Part shown: positions 1,675-50,009 of the stretch, piece by piece
Layout of the letters: each line of letters begins with the position of its first letter
Numbering within the stretch: position 1 is the stretch's first letter
NCBI RefSeq assembly: GCF_016026235.1
Contig: NZ_CP065613.1
DNA: 64,000 bases
Source of the DNA: Escherichia coli
GTDB taxonomy: Bacteria > Pseudomonadota > Gammaproteobacteria > Enterobacterales > Enterobacteriaceae
Strand: one strand, 5' to 3'
The notes under the pieces: generated by a model
What the model saw: the letters and a program-made list of their open reading frames with translations, nothing else
Told to the model about the DNA's origin: nothing
Databases searched by the model: none
Translations under genes and position numbers: made by a program

Positions 1675-3100
1675 TAATGCCAGTCAGTTAAGCAACTGAC
1701 TGGCTCTTTTTCGGGGCTGTGGGGTATTTCCAGGGCCTCTCCTTTACCACTCTCGGGAAGGCCCTTCCCCTTCTCGTCGGTAATTTCACAAGTTGTCCCA
1801 TACTTGCAAGATCGCGCATCAGCTCCGGTATACGTCCCGGTGAAGCGCCCTGCAATGTCATCAGCATTCTCATCACCATTCCGCATGATTCTGAGAAACT
1901 CAGTTGATTCGGCCAGTAACCTTTCAGATGTTCCGCCATTTTAATCATCTGATATCTCACCAGATTATAAGCCAGTAAGACACCCCACAGCTCTTGCTCC
2001 ACAAGCTCCGGCTTTTTACTTCTCAGCGTCAGCCTGCTCAGTTGCATCGTCTGTTTTATCTCCCTGTATCCCAGTTCGATTTCCCAGCGATGACTGTACA
2101 GATCCGCCATTTCTCCTCCGGGGAAGCGCATGGCGTCCGTCATCGACGTCAGCAGATGGCAGACTTTTCCTTTGCGCGTCACGGTCAGCAGGCGGGCTGT
2201 CACTTCATTTCCCAGTCCCGGCCACTTTTTTCGTGCCTGCGGGCTGGTTTTCAGCTTCACCAGATGATCGCCTTTACCCAGTTTTCTGAGCTCTTCATAT
2301 TGCGCTCCCTTTCTGAGAGGTATCATCCAGTGGCGGTGTTCTCCCGCCAGGCTCCAGGCATTTAACAGTCCCAGTGAGTAATAACCTTTATCCATTAACG
2401 TCAGAGTGTTATCGCCGGTTTGTTCTATAAGTTGCTCAGCAAGCTCATTTTCGCTGTTCTTCATCGTGCCGAAGGCTGCAGCCGTCAGCAGATGGCTGGT
2501 CAGTTCCATCTGGCAGACCATTTTGACCTGCGGGTAGAGCGCCGGGTTCCCGGCATGTGTCTGGCGGGGGAAGGCTGCATCGTTCTCTGGTGTATCCGGT
2601 GTGCGCCAGAACACACCATCGATGGCCAGCAGGGTCAGGCCGCACCAGTGCGGATGCGGCGTGGCGTTATGCCAGAGCTGCGCTGTTTTCGTGAACACGC
2701 GGCGGACAGCCTCACTTCCCAGGCGCTGGCGGGCCTGAATAACGGCACTGGGGGCAACGAAGGGGCGATTGCCCGGCAGCATGATGTCCAGGCGATTCAC
2801 AATCTGGTGAAGAGGTTCTTTACGCTCAAGCGCCATGCCAACAATACACCAGACCATCATTTCGAGGGGAAGACGGCGCTTGCGTAGCGTTACAGTACCT
2901 GATTCGGCAAGGCAACGAGAGATGAGTTCGGGGTCGAGGTAATCCCCCAGAGAAGTCAGTGGGTTACGCAGAGAATCGTAACGGGATACCAGATCAAGAG
3001 CCTGTCCAATGTGCATAAAAAAATCCGGAAACAAGTGAGCGTTTCCGGATTCTTACACAGCCACTGGATCGGTCAACTGATCCTTAACTGATCGGCATTA
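1675..3100 (-). mobile_element. IS4: IS4-type insertion sequence, copy 1 (1426 bp, 18-bp imperfect terminal inverted repeats)
   Basis: Ends TAATGCCAGTCAGTTAAG (1675-1692) and reverse complement of 3083-3100 TAATGCCGATCAGTTAAG match 16/18; single long transposase ORF; length 1426 bp equals canonical IS4 as I recall it; flanked by 13-bp direct repeat. Confidence 0.85.
1688..3016 (-). CDS. insG: IS4 transposase (442 aa from ATG at 3016; ORF track extends to an upstream TTG at 3034)
   Basis: Protein begins [20 protein letters not shown]... as I recall for IS4 InsG; contains the IS4-family YREK-type C-terminal region ([16 protein letters not shown]). Confidence 0.85.
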
Positions 3101-4953: not shown

Positions 4954-6627
4954 ATGACTGAATCTTTTGCTCAACTCTTTGAAGAGTCCTTAAAAGAAAT
5001 CGAAACCCGCCCGGGTTCTATCGTTCGTGGCGTTGTTGTTGCTATCGACAAAGACGTAGTACTGGTTGACGCTGGTCTGAAATCTGAGTCCGCCATCCCG
5101 GCTGAGCAGTTCAAAAACGCCCAGGGCGAGCTGGAAATCCAGGTAGGTGACGAAGTTGACGTTGCTCTGGACGCAGTAGAAGACGGCTTCGGTGAAACTC
5201 TGCTGTCCCGTGAGAAAGCTAAACGTCACGAAGCCTGGATCACGCTGGAAAAAGCTTACGAAGATGCTGAAACTGTTACCGGTGTTATCAACGGCAAAGT
5301 TAAGGGCGGCTTCACTGTTGAGCTGAACGGTATTCGTGCGTTCCTGCCAGGTTCTCTGGTAGACGTTCGTCCGGTGCGTGACACTCTGCACCTGGAAGGC
5401 AAAGAGCTTGAATTTAAAGTAATCAAGCTGGATCAGAAGCGCAACAACGTTGTTGTTTCTCGTCGTGCCGTTATCGAATCCGAAAACAGCGCAGAGCGCG
5501 ATCAGCTGCTGGAAAACCTGCAGGAAGGCATGGAAGTTAAAGGTATCGTTAAGAACCTCACTGACTACGGTGCATTCGTTGATCTGGGCGGCGTTGACGG
5601 CCTGCTGCACATCACTGACATGGCCTGGAAACGCGTTAAGCATCCGAGCGAAATCGTCAACGTGGGCGACGAAATCACTGTTAAAGTGCTGAAGTTTGAC
5701 CGCGAACGTACCCGTGTATCCCTGGGCCTGAAACAGCTGGGCGAAGATCCGTGGGTAGCTATCGCTAAACGTTATCCGGAAGGTACCAAACTGACTGGTC
5801 GCGTGACCAACCTGACCGACTACGGCTGCTTCGTTGAAATCGAAGAAGGCGTTGAAGGCCTGGTACACGTTTCCGAAATGGATTGGACCAACAAAAACAT
5901 CCACCCGTCCAAAGTTGTTAACGTTGGCGATGTAGTGGAAGTTATGGTTCTGGATATCGACGAAGAACGTCGTCGTATCTCCCTGGGTCTGAAACAGTGC
6001 AAAGCTAACCCGTGGCAGCAGTTCGCGGAAACCCACAACAAGGGCGACCGTGTTGAAGGTAAAATCAAGTCTATCACTGACTTCGGTATCTTCATCGGCC
6101 TGGACGGCGGCATCGACGGCCTGGTTCACCTGTCTGACATCTCCTGGAACGTTGCAGGCGAAGAAGCAGTTCGTGAATACAAAAAAGGCGACGAAATCGC
6201 TGCAGTTGTTCTGCAGGTTGACGCAGAACGTGAACGTATCTCCCTGGGCGTTAAACAGCTCGCAGAAGATCCGTTCAACAACTGGGTTGCTCTGAACAAG
6301 AAAGGCGCTATCGTAACCGGTAAAGTAACTGCAGTTGACGCTAAAGGCGCAACCGTAGAACTGGCTGACGGCGTTGAAGGTTACCTGCGTGCTTCTGAAG
6401 CATCCCGTGACCGCGTTGAAGACGCTACCCTGGTTCTGAGCGTTGGCGACGAAGTTGAAGCTAAATTCACCGGCGTTGATCGTAAAAACCGCGCAATCAG
6501 CCTGTCTGTTCGTGCGAAAGACGAAGCTGACGAGAAAGATGCAATCGCAACTGTTAACAAACAGGAAGATGCAAACTTCTCCAACAACGCAATGGCTGAA
6601 GCTTTCAAAGCAGCTAAAGGCGAGTAA
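4954..6627 (+). CDS. rpsA: 30S ribosomal protein S1
   Basis: 557-aa ORF, N-terminus [45 protein letters not shown], repeated S1 domains. Confidence 0.97.
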
Positions 6628-7071: not shown

Positions 7072-7096
7072 GTTTTTACTCAAACTTGAACGCGAG

Positions 7097-7124
7097 AAAA
7101 GCACCTGTCGGGTGCTTTTTTCAT
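7097..7124 (+). terminator. rho-independent terminator downstream of ihfB
   Basis: gcacc-tgtcg-ggtgc stem followed by tttttt (7116-7121). Confidence 0.7.
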
Positions 7125-7277
7125 TTCTCTAATCTGGAACTGGAAGCTGCCTCGCAGAGTTTTGAGCAGTTTTCACCCTTTCGTTAAATTCTTCTGAATG
7201 TGCCTCGGGGAACGCAAAATTCCCACCAGACAACCGCTCAACAAAGTTGCACACTTTCCATAAACAGGGAGGGGTGC

Positions 7278-9542
7278 ATGAAAATAACGACAGTCGGCGT
7301 ATGCATAATTTGCGGAATTTTTCCGTTGCTGATTTTGCCCCAATTGCCTGGGACATTAACCCTTGCGTTTCTGACTCTCTTCGCCTGCGTACTGGCATTT
7401 ATCCCTGTTAAAACCGTCCGTTATATCGCGCTGACGTTGCTGTTTTTCGTTTGGGGCATATTATCAGCAAAGCAAATTTTGTTGGCAGGAGAAACCTTAA
7501 CTGGCGCGACGCAGGATGCAATTGTTGAGATCACTGCTACTGACGGCATGACCACTCATTACGGTCAAATTACTTATCTACAAGGTCGACGTGTATTCCC
7601 TGCGCCAGGCCTTGTGCTGTATGGCGAATATCTTCCGCAAGCGGTTTGTGCCGGACAACTGTGGTCAATGAAACTCAAAGTTCGTGCCGTTCATGGTCAA
7701 CTTAATGATGGCGGCTTTGATAGCCAGCGTTATGCCATTGCCCTGCATCAGCCACTCACCGGCCGCTTTCTGCAGGCAAGTGTTATTGAACCGAATTGTA
7801 GCCTGCGTGCACAGTATCTGGCGTCACTACAAACAACGCTGCAACCCTATCCGTGGAATGCGGTTATTCTTGGTTTAGGTATGGGGGAACGGTTATCCGT
7901 CCCTAAAGAAATCAAAAATATCATGCGTGATACTGGAACGGCGCATTTAATGGCGATATCGGGATTGCACATCGCTTTTGCGGCGTTGCTGGCTGCCGGA
8001 CTCATTCGCAGTGGACAAATTTTTCTGCCTGGGCACTGGATCCACTGGCAAATGCCATTAATTGGCGGTATCTGCTGTGCTGCTTTTTATGCCTGGCTGA
8101 CGGGAATGCAACCTCCTGCATTGCGTACCGTTGTGGCGCTTGCTACGTGGGGAATGCTTAAGTTAAGTGGGCGACAGTGGAGTGGCTGGGATGTATGGAT
8201 ATGTTGTCTGGCGGCAATTTTGCTGATGGATCCTGTTGCCATTCTCTCGCAAAGTTTATGGCTCTCTGCCGCTGCGGTCGCGGCATTGATATTTTGGTAT
8301 CAGTGGTTTCCCTGTCCTGAGTGGCAACTGCCGCCGGTATTGCGTGCAGTTGTTTCCCTCATCCATCTGCAACTGGGAATCACACTTCTGCTTATGCCCG
8401 TGCAAATCGTCATATTTCATGGCATTAGTCTGACCTCGTTTATTGCAAATCTATTAGCAATTCCCTTGGTGACATTTATCACGGTTCCGTTGATCCTCGC
8501 CGCGATGGTTGTGCATTTAAGCGGGCCGTTAATCTTGGAGCAAGGGTTATGGTTTCTTGCCGACCGGTCTTTGGCTTTACTTTTCTGGGGGTTAAAGAGT
8601 TTGCCAGAAGGGTGGATCAACATTGCTGAACGTTGGCAATGGCTATCATTTTCCCCATGGTTCTTACTGGTGGTATGGCGATTAAACGCCTGGCGAACGT
8701 TGCCAGCAATGTGTGTGGCTGTAGGCTTGCTGATGTGCTGGCCGCTGTGGCAAAAACCTCGACCTGACGAGTGGCAGGTGTACATGCTTGATGTCGGGCA
8801 AGGGCTGGCAATGGTGATAGCCAGAAACGGCAAAGCGATTCTCTATGACACGGGACTGGCCTGGCCCGAAGGGGATAGTGGGCAACAACTGATTATCCCC
8901 TGGCTCCACTGGCATAATCTTGAACCGGAAGGCGTTATTCTGAGTCATGAACATCTGGATCACCGGGGAGGGCTGGACTCAATATTGCACACATGGCCGA
9001 TGTTATGGATCAGAAGTCCGTTAAACTGGGAACATCATCAGCCCTGTGTGCGTGGCGAAGCGTGGCAATGGCAAGGATTGCGTTTCAGCGTGCACTGGCC
9101 TTTACAAGCTAGCAACGATAAAGGAAATAACCATTCCTGTGTGGTTAAGGTTGATGACGGGACGAATAGCATTCTTCTAACCGGTGATATTGAAGTCCCC
9201 GCTGAACAAAAGATGCTAAGCCGTTACTGGCAGCAAGTGCAGGCAACATTGCTTCAGGTACCTCACCATGGCAGTAATACCTCATCATCGTTGCCATTAA
9301 TTCAGCGAGTGAATGGAAAAGTGGCACTCGCATCGGCATCGCGCTATAACGCATGGCGACTGCCCTCTAACAAAGTTAAGCATCGCTATCAACAACAGGG
9401 TTATACGTGGCTTGATACTCCTCATCAGGGGCAACTAACGGTCAATTTTTCAGCACAAGGCTGGCGGATTAGGAGCCTCAGGGAGCAAATTTTACCTCGT
9501 TGGTATCATCAGTGGTTTGGCGTGCCAGTGGATAACGGGTAG
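7278..9542 (+). CDS. ycaI: ComEC/Rec2-family inner membrane protein with C-terminal metallo-beta-lactamase-like domain
   Basis: ORF 7200-9542; probable start MKITTVGVCIICG preceded by GGGAGGGG RBS; polytopic hydrophobic N-terminal region; HEHLDHRGG motif near C-terminus. Confidence 0.85.
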   Translation: MKITTVGVCIICGIFPLLILPQLPGTLTLAFLTLFACVLAFIPVKTVRYIALTLLFFVWGILSAKQILLAGETLTGATQDAIVEITATDGMTTHYGQITYLQGRRVFPAPGLVLYGEYLPQAVCAGQLWSMKLKVRAVHGQLNDGGFDSQRYAIALHQPLTGRFLQASVIEPNCSLRAQYLASLQTTLQPYPWNAVILGLGMGERLSVPKEIKNIMRDTGTAHLMAISGLHIAFAALLAAGLIRSGQIFLPGHWIHWQMPLIGGICCAAFYAWLTGMQPPALRTVVALATWGMLKLSGRQWSGWDVWICCLAAILLMDPVAILSQSLWLSAAAVAALIFWYQWFPCPEWQLPPVLRAVVSLIHLQLGITLLLMPVQIVIFHGISLTSFIANLLAIPLVTFITVPLILAAMVVHLSGPLILEQGLWFLADRSLALLFWGLKSLPEGWINIAERWQWLSFSPWFLLVVWRLNAWRTLPAMCVAVGLLMCWPLWQKPRPDEWQVYMLDVGQGLAMVIARNGKAILYDTGLAWPEGDSGQQLIIPWLHWHNLEPEGVILSHEHLDHRGGLDSILHTWPMLWIRSPLNWEHHQPCVRGEAWQWQGLRFSVHWPLQASNDKGNNHSCVVKVDDGTNSILLTGDIEVPAEQKMLSRYWQQVQATLLQVPHHGSNTSSSLPLIQRVNGKVALASASRYNAWRLPSNKVKHRYQQQGYTWLDTPHQGQLTVNFSAQGWRIRSLREQILPRWYHQWFGVPVDNG

Positions 9543-9578
9543 AATATGCGGCTATTTCAACAAATGCTGGTTTTTTGA

Positions 9579-11327
9579 ATGCATAACGACAAAGATCTCT
9601 CTACGTGGCAGACATTCCGCCGACTGTGGCCAACCATTGCGCCTTTCAAAGCGGGTCTGATCGTGGCGGGCGTAGCGTTAATCCTCAACGCAGCCAGCGA
9701 TACCTTCATGTTATCGCTCCTTAAGCCACTTCTTGATGATGGCTTTGGTAAAACAGATCGCTCCGTGCTGGTGTGGATGCCGCTGGTGGTGATCGGGCTG
9801 ATGATTTTGCGTGGTATCACCAGCTATGTCTCCAGCTACTGTATCTCCTGGGTATCAGGAAAGGTGGTAATGACCATGCGTCGTCGCCTGTTTGGTCACA
9901 TGATGGGAATGCCGGTTTCATTCTTTGACAAACAGTCAACGGGTACGCTGTTGTCACGTATCACCTACGATTCCGAACAGGTTGCTTCTTCCTCTTCCGG
10001 CGCACTGATTACTGTTGTGCGTGAAGGTGCGTCGATCATCGGCCTGTTCATCATGATGTTCTATTACAGTTGGCAATTGTCGATCATTTTGATTGTGCTG
10101 GCACCGATTGTTTCGATTGCGATTCGCGTTGTATCGAAGCGTTTTCGCAACATCAGTAAAAACATGCAGAACACCATGGGGCAGGTGACCACCAGCGCAG
10201 AACAAATGCTGAAGGGCCACAAAGAAGTATTGATTTTCGGTGGTCAGGAAGTGGAAACGAAACGCTTCGATAAAGTCAGTAACCGAATGCGTCTTCAGGG
10301 GATGAAAATGGTTTCAGCCTCTTCCATCTCTGATCCGATCATTCAGCTGATCGCCTCTTTGGCGCTGGCGTTTGTTCTGTATGCGGCGAGCTTCCCAAGT
10401 GTCATGGATAGCCTGACTGCCGGTACGATTACCGTTGTTTTCTCTTCGATGATTGCACTGATGCGTCCGCTTAAATCGCTGACCAACGTTAACGCCCAGT
10501 TCCAGCGCGGTATGGCGGCTTGTCAGACGCTGTTTACCATTCTGGACAGTGAGCAGGAGAAAGACGAAGGTAAGCGCGTGATCGAGCGTGCGACTGGCGA
10601 CGTGGAATTCCGCAATGTCACCTTTACTTATCCGGGACGTGACGTACCCGCCTTGCGTAACATCAACCTGAAAATTCCGGCAGGGAAAACGGTCGCTCTG
10701 GTTGGACGCTCTGGTTCAGGTAAATCAACCATCGCCAGCCTGATCACGCGTTTTTACGATATTGATGAAGGCGAAATCCTGATGGATGGTCACGATCTGC
10801 GCGAGTATACCCTGGCGTCGTTGCGTAACCAGGTTGCTCTGGTGTCGCAGAATGTCCATCTGTTTAACGATACGGTTGCTAACAACATTGCTTACGCACG
10901 GACTGAACAGTACAGCCGTGAGCAAATTGAAGAAGCGGCGCGTATGGCCTACGCCATGGACTTCATCAATAAGATGGATAACGGTCTCGATACAGTGATT
11001 GGTGAAAACGGCGTGCTGCTCTCTGGCGGTCAGCGTCAGCGTATTGCTATCGCTCGAGCCTTGTTGCGTGATAGCCCGATTCTGATTCTGGACGAAGCTA
11101 CCTCGGCGTTGGATACCGAATCCGAACGTGCGATTCAGGCGGCACTGGATGAGTTGCAGAAAAACCGTACCTCTCTGGTGATTGCCCACCGCTTGTCTAC
11201 CATTGAAAAGGCAGACGAAATCGTGGTCGTTGAGGATGGTGTCATTGTGGAACGCGGTACGCATAACGATTTGCTTGAGCACCGCGGCGTTTACGCGCAA
11301 CTTCACAAAATGCAGTTTGGCCAATGA
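9579..11327 (+). CDS. msbA: lipid A/LPS flippase ABC transporter (ATP-binding/permease)
   Basis: 582-aa ORF; Walker [13 protein letters not shown] signature LSGGQRQR; start [13 protein letters not shown]. Confidence 0.95.
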
Positions 11328-12310
11328 TCGAAAAAATCTGGTCTGGTGAATCCCCTTTGTGGCGGCTATTGCTGCCACTCTCCTGGTTGTATGGCCTGGT
11401 GAGTGGCGCGATCCGTCTTTGCTATAAACTAAAACTGAAGCGCGCCTGGCGTGCCCCCGTACCGGTTGTCGTGGTTGGTAATCTCACCGCAGGCGGCAAC
11501 GGAAAAACCCCGGTCGTTGTCTGGCTGGTGGAACAGTTGCAACAGCGCGGTATTCGCGTGGGGGTCGTATCGCGGGGATATGGTGGTAAGGCTGAATCTT
11601 ATCCGCTGTTATTGTCGGCAGATACCACCACAGCACAGGCGGGTGATGAACCTGTGTTGATTTATCAACGCACTGATGCGCCTGTTGCGGTTTCTCCCGT
11701 TCGTTCTGATGCGGTAAAAGCCATTCTGGCGCAACACCCTGATGTGCAGATCATCGTAACCGACGACGGTTTACAGCATTACCGTCTGGCGCGTGATGTG
11801 GAAATTGTCGTTATTGATGGTGTGCGTCGCTTTGGCAATGGCTGGTGGTTGCCGGCGGGGCCAATGCGTGAGCGAGCGGGGCGCTTAAAGTCAGTTGATG
11901 CGGTAATCGTCAACGGCGGTGTCCCCCGCAGCGGTGAAATCCCCATGCATCTGCTGCCGGGTCAGGCGGTGAATTTACGTACCGGTACGCGTTGTGACGT
12001 TGCTCAGCTTGAACATGTGGTGGCGATGGCAGGGATTGGGCATCCGCCGCGCTTTTTTGCCACGCTGAAGATGTGCGGCGTACAACCGGAAAAATGTGTA
12101 CCGCTGGCCGATCATCAGTCTTTGAACCATGCGGATGTCAGCGCGTTGGTAAGCACCGGGCAAACGCTGGTAATGACTGAAAAAGATGCGGTGAAATGCA
12201 GGGCCTTTGCAGAAGAAAATTGGTGGTATTTGCCCGTTGACGCACAGCTTTCAGGTGATGAACCAGCGAAACTGCTTGCGCAACTAACCTCGCTGGCTTC
12301 TGGCAACTAG
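11324..12310 (+). CDS. lpxK: tetraacyldisaccharide 4'-kinase
   Basis: 328-aa ORF overlapping msbA stop by 4 nt (ATGA); P-loop [12 protein letters not shown]. Confidence 0.93.
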
Positions 12311-23822: not shown

Positions 23823-25248
23823 TAATGCCAGTCAGTTAAGCAACTGACTGGCTCTTTTTCGGGGCTGTGGGGTATTTCCAGGGCCTCTCCTTTACCACTC
23901 TCGGGAAGGCCCTTCCCCTTCTCGTCGGTAATTTCACAAGTTGTCCCATACTTGCAAGATCGCGCATCAGCTCCGGTATACGTCCCGGTGAAGCGCCCTG
24001 CAATGTCATCAGCATTCTCATCACCATTCCGCATGATTCTGAGAAACTCAGTTGATTCGGCCAGTAACCTTTCAGATGTTCCGCCATTTTAATCATCTGA
24101 TATCTCACCAGATTATAAGCCAGTAAGACACCCCACAGCTCTTGCTCCACAAGCTCCGGCTTTTTACTTCTCAGCGTCAGCCTGCTCAGTTGCATCGTCT
24201 GTTTTATCTCCCTGTATCCCAGTTCGATTTCCCAGCGATGACTGTACAGATCCGCCATTTCTCCTCCGGGGAAGCGCATGGCGTCCGTCATCGACGTCAG
24301 CAGATGGCAGACTTTTCCTTTGCGCGTCACGGTCAGCAGGCGGGCTGTCACTTCATTTCCCAGTCCCGGCCACTTTTTTCGTGCCTGCGGGCTGGTTTTC
24401 AGCTTCACCAGATGATCGCCTTTACCCAGTTTTCTGAGCTCTTCATATTGCGCTCCCTTTCTGAGAGGTATCATCCAGTGGCGGTGTTCTCCCGCCAGGC
24501 TCCAGGCATTTAACAGTCCCAGTGAGTAATAACCTTTATCCATTAACGTCAGAGTGTTATCGCCGGTTTGTTCTATAAGTTGCTCAGCAAGCTCATTTTC
24601 GCTGTTCTTCATCGTGCCGAAGGCTGCAGCCGTCAGCAGATGGCTGGTCAGTTCCATCTGGCAGACCATTTTGACCTGCGGGTAGAGCGCCGGGTTCCCG
24701 GCATGTGTCTGGCGGGGGAAGGCTGCATCGTTCTCTGGTGTATCCGGTGTGCGCCAGAACACACCATCGATGGCCAGCAGGGTCAGGCCGCACCAGTGCG
24801 GATGCGGCGTGGCGTTATGCCAGAGCTGCGCTGTTTTCGTGAACACGCGGCGGACAGCCTCACTTCCCAGGCGCTGGCGGGCCTGAATAACGGCACTGGG
24901 GGCAACGAAGGGGCGATTGCCCGGCAGCATGATGTCCAGGCGATTCACAATCTGGTGAAGAGGTTCTTTACGCTCAAGCGCCATGCCAACAATACACCAG
25001 ACCATCATTTCGAGGGGAAGACGGCGCTTGCGTAGCGTTACAGTACCTGATTCGGCAAGGCAACGAGAGATGAGTTCGGGGTCGAGGTAATCCCCCAGAG
25101 AAGTCAGTGGGTTACGCAGAGAATCGTAACGGGATACCAGATCAAGAGCCTGTCCAATGTGCATAAAAAAATCCGGAAACAAGTGAGCGTTTCCGGATTC
25201 TTACACAGCCACTGGATCGGTCAACTGATCCTTAACTGATCGGCATTA
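23823..25248 (-). mobile_element. IS4: IS4-type insertion sequence, copy 2 (1426 bp)
   Basis: Offset of 22148 bp from copy 1; same terminal repeats (23823-23840, 25231-25248); all ORF-track translations inside it are identical to copy 1. Confidence 0.85.
23836..25164 (-). CDS. insG: IS4 transposase (442 aa)
   Basis: Identical protein to the copy at 1688-3016. Confidence 0.85.
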
Positions 25249-48888: not shown

Positions 48889-48998
48889 TACAGGTTCGGA
48901 AAACGTTTGCGTTTTTTTTGCCGCAGGTCAATTCCCTTTTGGTCCGAACTCGCACATAATACGCCCCCGGTTTGCACACCGGGAATCCAGGAGAGTTC

Positions 48999-50009
48999 AT
49001 GTACTACCCCTTCGTTCGTAAAGCCCTTTTCCAGCTCGATCCAGAGCGCGCTCATGAGTTTACTTTTCAGCAATTACGCCGCATTACCGGAACACCGTTT
49101 GAAGCACTGGTGCGGCAGAAAGTGCCTGCGAAACCTGTTAACTGCATGGGCCTGACGTTTAAAAATCCGCTTGGTCTGGCAGCCGGTCTTGACAAAGACG
49201 GGGAGTGCATTGATGCGTTAGGCGCGATGGGATTTGGATCGATCGAGATCGGTACCGTCACGCCACGTCCACAGCCAGGTAATGACAAGCCGCGTCTCTT
49301 TCGTCTGGTAGATGCCGAAGGTTTGATCAACCGTATGGGCTTTAATAATCTTGGCGTTGATAACCTCGTAGAGAACGTAAAAAAAGCCCATTATGACGGC
49401 GTCCTGGGTATTAACATCGGCAAAAATAAAGATACGCCAGTAGAGCAGGGCAAAGATGACTATCTGATTTGTATGGAAAAAATCTATGCCTATGCGGGAT
49501 ATATCGCCATCAATATTTCATCGCCGAATACCCCAGGATTACGCACGCTGCAATATGGTGAAGCGCTGGATGATCTCTTAACCGCGATTAAAAATAAGCA
49601 AAATGATTTGCAAGCGATGCACCATAAATATGTGCCGATCGCAGTGAAGATCGCGCCGGATCTTTCTGAAGAAGAATTGATCCAGGTTGCCGATAGTTTA
49701 GTTCGCCATAATATTGATGGCGTTATTGCAACCAATACCACACTCGATCGTTCTCTGGTTCAGGGAATGAAAAATTGCGATCAAACCGGTGGCTTAAGTG
49801 GTCGTCCGCTTCAGTTAAAAAGCACCGAAATTATTCGCCGCTTGTCACTGGAATTAAACGGTCGCTTACCGATCATCGGTGTTGGCGGCATCGACTCGGT
49901 TATCGCTGCGCGTGAAAAGATTGCTGCGGGTGCCTCACTGGTGCAAATTTATTCTGGTTTTATTTTTAAAGGTCCGCCGCTGATTAAAGAAATCGTTACC
50001 CATATCTAA
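48999..50009 (+). CDS. pyrD: dihydroorotate dehydrogenase (quinone)
   Basis: ORF 48972-50009; start [28 protein letters not shown]. Confidence 0.95.

Follow-up and report, generated by a model that had tools for sequence, protein, structure and literature searches.

Escherichia coli and related bacteria have retained a complete and selected ComEC together with other competence homologues, yet natural transformation is essentially undetectable in them. We know of no natural competence phenotype in E. coli, and in naturally competent species the ComEC/Rec2 channel, through which single strands of DNA cross the inner membrane, is required for DNA uptake. The ycaI gene at positions 7278..9542 (+) of the 64,000-nucleotide stretch of E. 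coli DNA analyzed here (hereafter the window; contig NZ_CP065613.1 of assembly GCF_016026235.1) therefore raises the question of what its product is kept for, and whether two IS4 copies that flank the gene have any bearing on it. We consider it probable, at roughly 80%, that ycaI encodes a complete ComEC-like protein under purifying selection which carries out nuclease-coupled import of single-stranded DNA (ssDNA) for a cryptic pathway induced by Sxy and CRP, and that the IS4 copies are independent of it. The gene has long been annotated and the identical protein is already found in public databases as "ComEC family protein [Escherichia coli]", so that it matters little as a discovery.

Reading frame and domain architecture of YcaI

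The frame at 7278..9542 starts with ATG and consists of 754 codons and a stop codon, with no internal stops, which confirms the intact ORF of the preliminary description. A mechanical list of ORFs placed the start at a GTG at position 7200. This start was rejected in favor of the ATG at 7278, because a Shine-Dalgarno sequence (GGAGG, 7268..7272, + strand) is read 5 nt 5' of the ATG, because the equivalog alignment begins at residue 1, and because the protein has 754 amino acids in K-12 and in orthologues from Enterobacteriaceae. The identification as ycaI agrees with the RefSeq annotation of K-12 and other E. coli, where the gene is located between ihfB and msbA. Compared to K-12 b0913 (NP_415433.4) the protein has the same length, 754 amino acids, with an identity of 97.0% at the amino-acid level and 97.5% at the nucleotide level. 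The 23 substitutions relative to K-12 YcaI all lie outside the metal-ligand motifs and the channel signature motifs. Among nine E. coli sequences, five residues were private to the window protein (I106V, Q156L, R/C253H, 720L, and S732R). By its sequence the frame is an intact copy of ycaI, a core gene of the E. coli chromosome that is already annotated and not new. Antisense ORFs at 7129-7398, 8417-8833, and 8682-8963 (- strand) overlap the strongly conserved coding frame.

A domain search had been set beforehand as the refutation test for the assignment of YcaI to the ComEC family. It detected both the Competence and the Lactamase_B domain, far above the gathering cut-offs. Pfam Competence (PF03772) matched residues 201-467 over profile positions 2-265 of 270 (E 2.8e-53; 181.4 bits, cut-off 23), and the profile search gave a TIGR00360 match of 3.1e-61. 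Pfam Lactamase_B (PF00753) matched residues 505-686 (E 3.3e-23; 83 bits). The NCBIfam equivalog NF008580/PRK11539 aligned to residues 1-754 over profile positions 3-758 with 1311.8 bits (cut-off 969), and TIGR00361 (ComEC_Rec2) reached 1095.7 bits against a cut-off of 190. The domain and equivalog scores of YcaI are far beyond chance. Both parts of the ComEC architecture originally proposed for this ORF, a polytopic membrane part and a C-terminal motif of the metallo-beta-lactamase type, are present.

The N-terminal region had been described as polytopic membrane. Membrane helices were indeed found there, but the region is not purely membrane, as a soluble beta-rich domain resembling an OB fold (approximately residues 78-171) lies between transmembrane helices 3 and 4. 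Hydropathy peaks were located at approximately residues 3-68 and 225-412. The AF2 model (pLDDT 94.2, pTM 0.91) has helices at residues 3-18, 26-40, and 45-74 and roughly ten more between residues 229 and 491, and the order of its elements agrees with the cryo-EM description of ComEC. Three N-terminal transmembrane helices, as in the ComEC cryo-EM structure, were accordingly placed at residues ~3-74 (7278..7499, +) from hydropathy and the AF2 model. The OB-fold-like domain (DUF4131; 7509..7790, +) was placed from the AF2 model and from alignment to Rec2 9vc9; it is modeled with five strands (residues 78-88, 93-101, 111-115, 128-137, and 160-171) at a pLDDT of about 88-95. The Pfam profile DUF4131 (PF13567) matched YcaI residues 27-153 with 23.8 bits, below its gathering cut-off of 31.6, and many YcaI orthologues carry precomputed PF13567 matches. 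In the predicted structure, YcaI has the N-terminal OB fold that follows three transmembrane helices. This domain would face the periplasm, as it does in ComEC structures.

The Competence domain, corresponding to the channel, spans residues 201-467 (7878..8678, +) according to PF03772, TIGR00360, and the invariant columns. It is followed by a C-terminal domain of metallo-beta-lactamase (MBL) fold, a predicted nuclease, at residues ~499-737 (8772..9488, +), placed by PF00753 and by its fold match to 9ic4. This match was the best to a solved structure (TM 0.81, rmsd 2.6 A); in the fold comparison with the PDB library (Foldseek) the ComEC/Rec2 match covers the nuclease domain 9ic4 only. PADLOC defence models gave weak generic MBL-fold matches to YcaI (E 1e-6 to 1e-2) and no defence system.

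The HEHLDHRGG motif noted earlier was recovered in MBL motif 2, where H557-E-H559-L-D561-H562 contains metal ligands (8946..8963, +) and is invariant in nine E. coli and 14 Enterobacteriaceae sequences. The metal-ligand set is complete across MBL motifs 1-5 of YcaI. D505, H557, H559, D561, H562, N617, D637, H663, and H664 are all invariant in Enterobacteriaceae, and apart from H559 each of them is also kept in 130 or more of 134 relatives; position 559 is D in most of these relatives. Motif 2 reads HxHxDH in YcaI as in the relatives closest to it, and HxDxDH in 109 of the 134. H557, D561, and H562 were invariant in 102 relatives, as were the channel signature residues H223, I227, S228, G229, and H231 and, in the OB-like region, N143. 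The enterobacterial clade defined by HxHxDH, 754 amino acids, and a position upstream of msbA could have acquired an altered metal site or a different substrate preference and be selected for something besides classical transformation, either nutritional import of DNA or nucleotides or an envelope-related phosphodiesterase activity; we find this combination unlikely.

The ycaI locus and the flanking IS4 copies

The gene order ihfB-ycaI-msbA-lpxK-ycaQ-ycaR-kdsB is the same in the window and in K-12. Relatives at 33-42% identity have comEC-msbA-lpxK-(Trm112p/ycaR)-kdsB or ihfB-comEC-lpxK-ycaR-kdsB, and because the order persists in these relatives the location of ycaI is ancestral. The gene does adjoin msbA, as implied by its earlier placement within the cmk-msbA neighbourhood, but with the position kept over such distances there is nothing peculiar about it. 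Haemophilus influenzae rec2 and Vibrio cholerae comEC presumably occupy the same position upstream of msbA-lpxK, and we take the comEC-msbA-lpxK-kdsB synteny to extend to naturally competent species.

An intrinsic terminator-like hairpin of ihfB, with a stem of 13 bp and a run of T after it, was found between ihfB and ycaI (7094..7122, +), and terminators were described for the ihfB-ycaI arrangement of Salmonella (PMC8942017). The gap between ycaI and msbA is 36 bp, and no terminator-like hairpin was found in it. A candidate internal msbA promoter (sigma-70-like TTGGCG-17-TAGAAT, 9517..9545, +), proposed from its match to the consensus, overlaps the ycaI stop codon and lies 34 nt before the msbA ATG. 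The spacer between ihfB and ycaI contains one core match of CRP-S type (TGCGA-N6-TCGCA) with two mismatches, at 7141-7156. Such two-mismatch matches occur 40 times in the window compared to 46 expected from shuffled sequence. No CRP-S site better than chance was thus found upstream of ycaI, and Sxy control of the gene is therefore unsupported by the sequence here. No Rfam or tRNA hit lies near ycaI; the sole hit that these scans gave in the window was the PyrD leader at 48931-49004.

The deeply conserved adjacency of comEC, msbA, lpxK, and kdsB and the short, hairpin-free gap before msbA would also fit a YcaI that has taken on a task in the envelope or in lipid metabolism linked to that of msbA, lpxK, and kdsB, such as the cleavage of a substrate other than DNA by an MBL-fold phosphodiesterase. 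Outside ComEC, the folds closest to its MBL domain are phosphodiesterases, among them the pneumococcal phosphorylcholine esterase Pce, and a ycaI mutant had altered efficiencies of chemical and ultrasound transformation and altered values in some permeability read-outs (PMC12844161). However, mutations located just upstream of the essential msbA may act by polarity, and conservation of the OB and channel domains is complete. Relatives with the HxDxDH motif have the same synteny, as do presumably the naturally competent species in which the protein is required for DNA uptake; a role in lipid metabolism therefore does not follow from the synteny. We regard recruitment to the envelope as very unlikely and retain DNA import as the preferred function.

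The preliminary description had placed ycaI within an IS4-bracketed segment. Two IS4 copies of 1426 bp do flank the gene, both on the - strand: copy A (1675..3100) in the aroA-ycaL intergenic region, 4.2 kb upstream of ycaI, with a 13-bp target duplication CGGCACATTGTCG, and copy B (23823..25248) in the mukB-ldtD intergenic region, 14.3 kb downstream, with a 13-bp target duplication GCACATTACGGCG. They are 100% identical and in the same orientation, and both are absent from K-12. Each has imperfect terminal inverted repeats beginning with TAATGCC and a transposase of about 440 amino acids (448 in the mechanical ORF, which has a TTG start) with the Pfam domains Nterm_IS4 and DDE_Tnp_1; RefSeq names the same sequence "IS4-like element IS4 family transposase". 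The bracketing nevertheless has no bearing on the gene, as each copy has its own 13-bp duplication and the gene order is native.

Identical copies in the same orientation, flanking the segment from the distal side of aroA to mukB, could suggest that ycaI was mobilised, or was acquired, as part of a 23.6-kb composite IS4 transposon. We give this reading practically no weight. The 13-bp duplications differ and no outer duplication is shared. Both sites are empty in K-12, with a single copy of each 13-mer, and removal of each IS4 along with one duplicate 13-mer restores the exact K-12 sequence at both sites. The two sites are also occupied separately in other E. coli genomes, site A in 39 and site B in 19. 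The interval between the copies is collinear with K-12, so the cargo is not foreign, and it holds rpsA, msbA, lpxK, kdsB, and mukFEB, core genes known to be essential or nearly so. Both the target duplications and the comparison with the empty K-12 sites refute the composite transposon: the IS4 copies are two independent simple insertions, and ycaI is unaffected by them. As direct repeats they could promote duplication of the essential 22-kb region between them, while its deletion would probably be lethal.

Conservation of ycaI and its role in E. coli

The ycaI gene was found in 5425 of 5426 complete E. coli genomes. Among nine E. coli sequences its mean dN/dS was 0.16, and stops or frameshifts were found in none of them. 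Orthologues of 754 amino acids were found, among the matches listed, in Citrobacter, Klebsiella, Enterobacter, Kosakonia, and other genera, with identities down to 60%. The gene is kept under purifying selection. Its essential neighbours have dN/dS values of 0.008-0.086, making ycaI the fastest-evolving gene of the neighbourhood, and it is disrupted in rare E. coli strains (by IS1 in NZ_AP021892.1, and with half of the gene in NZ_CP027459.1). Since it evolves faster than the essential genes around it and is disrupted in some strains, ycaI is dispensable.

The same two observations could be taken to mean that ycaI is an evolutionary relic, intact in appearance but functionless and drifting towards a pseudogene. 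Shortened protein clusters of 528 and 611 amino acids exist in the database, some of which may be fragments from contig ends, and knock-outs lack a strong phenotype (PMC6135910; PMC3306417). On the other hand, the dN/dS of 0.16 is far lower than expected under neutrality, all nine fully examined copies are intact, the near-universal presence of the gene and a constant length across genera only 60% identical are not expected of a relic, and the catalytic and channel signature residues are all invariant. The selection analysis largely refutes loss of function, and we give this alternative little credence.

In the literature the function of ycaI in E. coli is poorly defined, in line with the original assessment (PMC6135910; PMC3306417; PMC3330819; PMC12844161), and a direct demonstration of DNA transport or nuclease activity by YcaI itself was not found there. 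According to two papers that cite work from 2009, ycaI is dispensable for spontaneous plasmid transformation (PMC6135910; PMC3306417). When sxy is expressed the competence-gene homologues are induced, and with lambda Red provided transformants are obtained (PMC3330819); according to the same paper, all of these homologues are induced by Sxy.

Nuclease-coupled ssDNA import would most likely be the mechanism of YcaI, given its homology to ComEC proteins that have been studied. Periplasmic double-stranded DNA would be held at the mouth of the channel by the OB domain. The MBL domain, acting as a metal-dependent nuclease, would degrade one strand, and the remaining strand would pass through the channel as ssDNA and so reach the cytoplasm. 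In view of the E. coli literature, YcaI may in this way serve a cryptic DNA uptake induced by Sxy and CRP, for scavenging of nucleotides and/or for rare transformation. Since laboratory strains of E. coli normally keep this pathway silent, knock-outs would have little phenotype.

The same channel and nuclease could have been selected for a nutritional role, in which nucleotides derived from DNA are imported during starvation or long-term stationary phase without any genetic transformation. We see this as a serious though tentative alternative, somewhat short of even odds. The purifying selection on ycaI extends across Enterobacteriaceae, which to our knowledge are not naturally transformable. 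Growth of E. coli on DNA as the sole carbon source depends on competence-gene homologues, yet chromosomal transformation was reportedly undetected (Palchevskiy and Finkel, as summarized in PMC3330819). A DH5alpha ycaI nonsense mutant had a slightly lower stationary-phase OD (PMC12844161). However, DNA may also be consumed through periplasmic digestion by EndA followed by nucleoside uptake, for which ComEC is unneeded (PMC9273947).

Comparison with known ComEC/Rec2 systems

By sequence and position, ycaI is the orthologue of the ComEC/Rec2 genes of naturally competent bacteria. The E. coli K-12 YcaI (NF008580/PRK11539) has the same locus and length as the protein of the window, whereas the flanking IS4 copies are lacking in K-12.

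The solved gammaproteobacterial Rec2/ComEC structures (9vc9, 9vcb, and 9vcf) matched YcaI over residues 81-747 (E 7e-77 to 9e-75), and have the same order of OB, channel, and MBL domains. The motifs LDVGQGLA, GNNxSCV, LTGDIE, and PHHGS are common to both, while the N-terminus of YcaI is ~40-50 residues shorter. The deposited Rec2 chains read H-G-A-N-A-H at motif 2 (SHGANAHAGG). A natural loss of the motif was rejected as the explanation, as the 134 natural relatives almost universally have H-x-D/H-x-D-H; the deposited chains are most likely engineered D-to-A mutants.

Further structure matches were obtained to N. carbonis ComEC (30bt) and to the nuclease domain of M. glycerini (N. glycerini) ComEC (9ic4). 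The Neomoorella ComEC resembles YcaI in its three-domain layout: three transmembrane helices precede the OB fold, and a further helix follows it immediately. In the nuclease domain the two proteins are only ~26% identical, and motif 2 is HPDADH compared to HEHLDH in YcaI. The Neomoorella protein also belongs to a system of Gram-positive type, in which ComEA is anchored in the membrane; E. coli, by contrast, possesses an outer membrane, and its ComEA homologue (YbaV) is soluble. Endonuclease and 5' exonuclease activity were measured for the Neomoorella ComEC domain (bioRxiv 10.64898/2026.04.23.720307), and the set of metal ligands in that nuclease domain is the same as in YcaI. With ComEC/Rec2 structures solved and ComEC nuclease activity measured, a direct biochemical test of YcaI is straightforward.

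Identity and architecture of YcaI

The ycaI gene of the window is an intact orthologue of ComEC/Rec2 that had been annotated before and that occupies its ancestral place on the chromosome; as such it is already known and ordinary. It was found as one uninterrupted, ATG-started frame of 754 codons plus stop on the plus strand (7278..9542). In the mechanical ORF list the frame runs back to a GTG at 7200. The ATG at 7278 is preferred as start codon because a Shine-Dalgarno sequence, GGAGG (7268-7272, plus strand), is located 5 nt before it, because the alignment to the NCBIfam full-length model begins at residue 1 of the ATG-started protein, and because 754 amino acids is the length in K-12 and in the listed Enterobacteriaceae orthologues. 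The motif HEHLDHRGG was read in the sequence, HEHLDH being residues 557-562 (nucleotides 8946-8963, plus strand). Since frame, ATG start and motif were all found, the observation made in the preliminary description is confirmed as written.

That description had also proposed a polytopic membrane region joined to a metallo-beta-lactamase (MBL) domain. In the hydropathy scan, residues ~3-68 and ~225-412 stood out as strongly hydrophobic. The domain search, whose failure the description had named as refuting its reading, was passed, detecting both Pfam Competence (PF03772, E 2.8e-53, residues 201-467) and Lactamase_B (PF00753, E 3.3e-23, residues 505-686). DUF4131, the ComEC OB-fold region, gave a weaker match below threshold (23.8 bits, cut-off 31.6). 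YcaI scored 1311.8 bits over its full length against the NCBIfam equivalog PRK11539, 'ComEC family protein' (cut-off 969), and 1095.7 bits against TIGR00361 (ComEC_Rec2).

An AlphaFold2 model based on a 102-sequence alignment was confident (mean pLDDT 94.2, pTM 0.91). It contains three N-terminal helices (residues 3-18, 26-40, and 45-74), a five-strand beta domain (residues 78-171) directly followed by a helix (residues 176-188), about ten more long helices as far as residue 491, and an alpha/beta domain (residues 499-737). YcaI thus has the complete ComEC architecture. Residues 81-747 align with the gammaproteobacterial Rec2/ComEC chains 9vc9, 9vcb, and 9vcf (E 7e-77 to 9e-75); the alignments to 30bt and 9ic4 from Neomoorella are weaker. 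Among the Foldseek matches, which did not include full-length ComEC entries, the best was the ComEC nuclease domain 9ic4 (TM 0.81, rmsd 2.6 A), followed by other MBL-fold phosphodiesterases and RNase J/CPSF73-type nucleases.

The ycaI region was found by Megablast in 5,425 of 5,426 complete E. coli genomes, annotated as ycaI and located between ihfB and msbA. Compared to K-12 b0913 the protein has equal length, with 23 amino-acid differences (97.0% identity) and 57 nucleotide differences (97.5%). A single residue, Q156L, separates it from that of the closest genome, strain FDAARGOS_943. Databases already list the identical protein under the name 'ComEC family protein [Escherichia coli]' (e.g., EFK2889413.1), with 17 contigs carrying it. 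L156 (7743-7745), which belongs to the OB-like domain, is not shared by any of the other compared E. coli copies, all of which have Q. The change is probably neutral, since this column varies among Enterobacteriaceae.

Conservation and selection

For ycaI and neighbouring genes, mean dN/dS (Nei-Gojobori) was determined with K-12 plus seven further E. coli genomes that span the identity range. The value was 0.16 for ycaI (7278-9542), 0.086 for lpxK (11324-12310), 0.026 for rpsA (4954-6627), and 0.008 for msbA (9579-11327). As ycaI was also intact in all nine E. coli copies compared, it is under clear purifying selection, yet it is the least constrained and fastest-evolving gene of its neighbourhood. 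Its nucleotide identity to K-12 was 97.5%, compared to 98.7-99.8% for the neighbours, with the highest density of variable positions in the N-terminal 200 residues of the protein. Orthologues from Citrobacter, Klebsiella, Enterobacter, Kosakonia, Lelliottia, Yokenella, and other Enterobacteriaceae have 754 amino acids at 60-75% identity. In an alignment of 14 genera the MBL metal ligands D505, H557, H559, D561, H562, N617, D637, H663, and H664 were invariant, as was the channel signature TGTAHLMAISGLHI. The dN/dS, the conserved length and the invariant catalytic residues contradict the view of ycaI as a relic or pseudogene.

Disrupted copies were found in rare complete E. coli genomes; NZ_AP021892.1 carries an IS1 insertion, and NZ_CP027459.1 has half the gene (52% matched). 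Such copies fit a gene that is dispensable but selected. Shortened forms of 528 and 611 amino acids also make up large clusters in the protein database; these may be either pseudogenes or fragments from contig ends.

Chromosomal neighbourhood and IS4 copies

The gene order aroA, IS4, ycaL, cmk, rpsA, ihfB, ycaI, msbA, lpxK, ycaQ, ycaR, kdsB, ycbJ, elyC, cmoM, mukFEB, IS4, ldtD is that of K-12 with two IS4 copies added. In relatives of 33-42% identity (loci L011-L015) the order comEC-msbA-lpxK-ycaR(Trm112p)-kdsB was found, often with ihfB and rpsA upstream, and in one lineage (L011/L012) comEC is followed by lpxK without an intervening msbA (ihfB-comEC-lpxK-ycaR-kdsB). The site beside msbA/lpxK is therefore ancestral. 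A ComEC homologue had been described as lying inside an essential neighbourhood; the location stands, but for this family it is the normal state in these bacteria and not an anomaly. The adjacency to msbA/lpxK could suggest an envelope or lipid role for YcaI, but because it recurs across distant relatives this role is unsupported.

A strong terminator-like hairpin is located 3' of ihfB (7094-7122), while none was found in the 36-bp ycaI-msbA spacer. A candidate sigma-70-like hexamer pair, TTGGCG-17-TAGAAT (9517-9545), identified by consensus match only, overlaps the ycaI stop codon 34 nt before the msbA ATG. A mutation in the 3' end of ycaI could thus alter how the essential msbA is expressed. 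Elsewhere in the window, the PyrD leader upstream of pyrD (Rfam RF02373, 97.9 bits, 48931-49004) was the only Rfam family at gathering score, and no tRNA genes were found in the 64 kb.

The IS4 copies, each of 1426 bp, are 100% identical and share orientation. One is located in the aroA-ycaL spacer (1675-3100) and the other in the mukB-ldtD spacer (23823-25248), flanked by the 13-bp direct duplications CGGCACATTGTCG and GCACATTACGGCG, respectively, which have GCACATT in common. In K-12 both sites are empty with each 13-mer present once, and deleting IS4 and one duplicate recreates the K-12 sequence exactly at both. The copies are therefore independent simple insertions. A composite transposon carrying ycaI is refuted by the separate target duplications, and the interval is native chromosome that did not move as one piece. 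The two copies do flank ycaI, as described earlier, but without effect on it. The junctions also occur in 39 (1675-3100) and 19 (23823-25248) other complete E. coli genomes, so both sites look like recurrent hot spots for IS4. The sole consequence is that the interval could be duplicated by way of the two copies, which form direct repeats; its deletion would remove rpsA, msbA, lpxK, kdsB, and mukFEB, which are essential or near-essential.

Proposed role and comparison with studied ComEC proteins

Metal ligands are intact, selection is purifying and orthology is positional; the mechanism itself is modelled on studied ComEC proteins. The OB domain would position periplasmic dsDNA at the mouth of the channel, the MBL domain would degrade one strand, and the complementary strand would cross as ssDNA via the competence-domain channel. 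In E. coli, such import may serve a normally silent, Sxy/CRP-dependent uptake pathway. When sxy is expressed, the competence-gene homologues are induced, and transformants appear if recombination is provided by lambda Red (PMC3330819). Caution is called for, as the region upstream of ycaI showed no CRP-S site beyond chance expectation, and no demonstration of transport or nuclease activity of YcaI itself was found in the accessible literature. The use of DNA as a nutrient for growth reportedly requires competence homologues (work cited in PMC3330819). A purely nutritional role agrees with all evidence in this analysis and is compatible with the proposed mechanism, as only the selected benefit would differ. 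Spontaneous plasmid transformation does not require ycaI (PMC6135910, PMC3306417), which likewise calls for caution. A ycaI nonsense mutant of DH5alpha had lowered chemical and ultrasound transformation (2026 study, PMC12844161); this, too, is to be read with care, as the transformation was artificial and the mutation could conceivably have had a polar effect on msbA.

HMMER, run exhaustively over 1.84 billion representative proteins, gave 43,529 relatives of YcaI at E <= 1e-3, of which 4,475 reached E <= 1e-30. D505, H557, D561, H562, N617, D637, and H663 were each present in 133 or 134 of 134 full-length relatives. The third residue of MBL motif 2 was H in 23 of these, mainly in the clusters closest to YcaI (canonical HxHxDH), and D in 109 (HxDxDH). 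Both are plausible metal sites, since the biochemically active Neomoorella ComEC, with measured endo- and 5' exonuclease activity, has HPDADH (bioRxiv 10.64898/2026.04.23.720307). At the positions of YcaI residues 556-565, 9vc9, 9vcb, and 9vcf read SH-G/S-A-N-A-H-AGG, whereas natural relatives keep SH-x-D-N-D-H-AGG. Judged from this alignment, the solved Rec2 chains are most likely engineered D-to-A catalytic mutants rather than natural degenerate forms, and taken at face value they would falsely imply natural loss of the nuclease site. Together with the assays, the published ComEC structures make the role of YcaI in E. coli directly testable.
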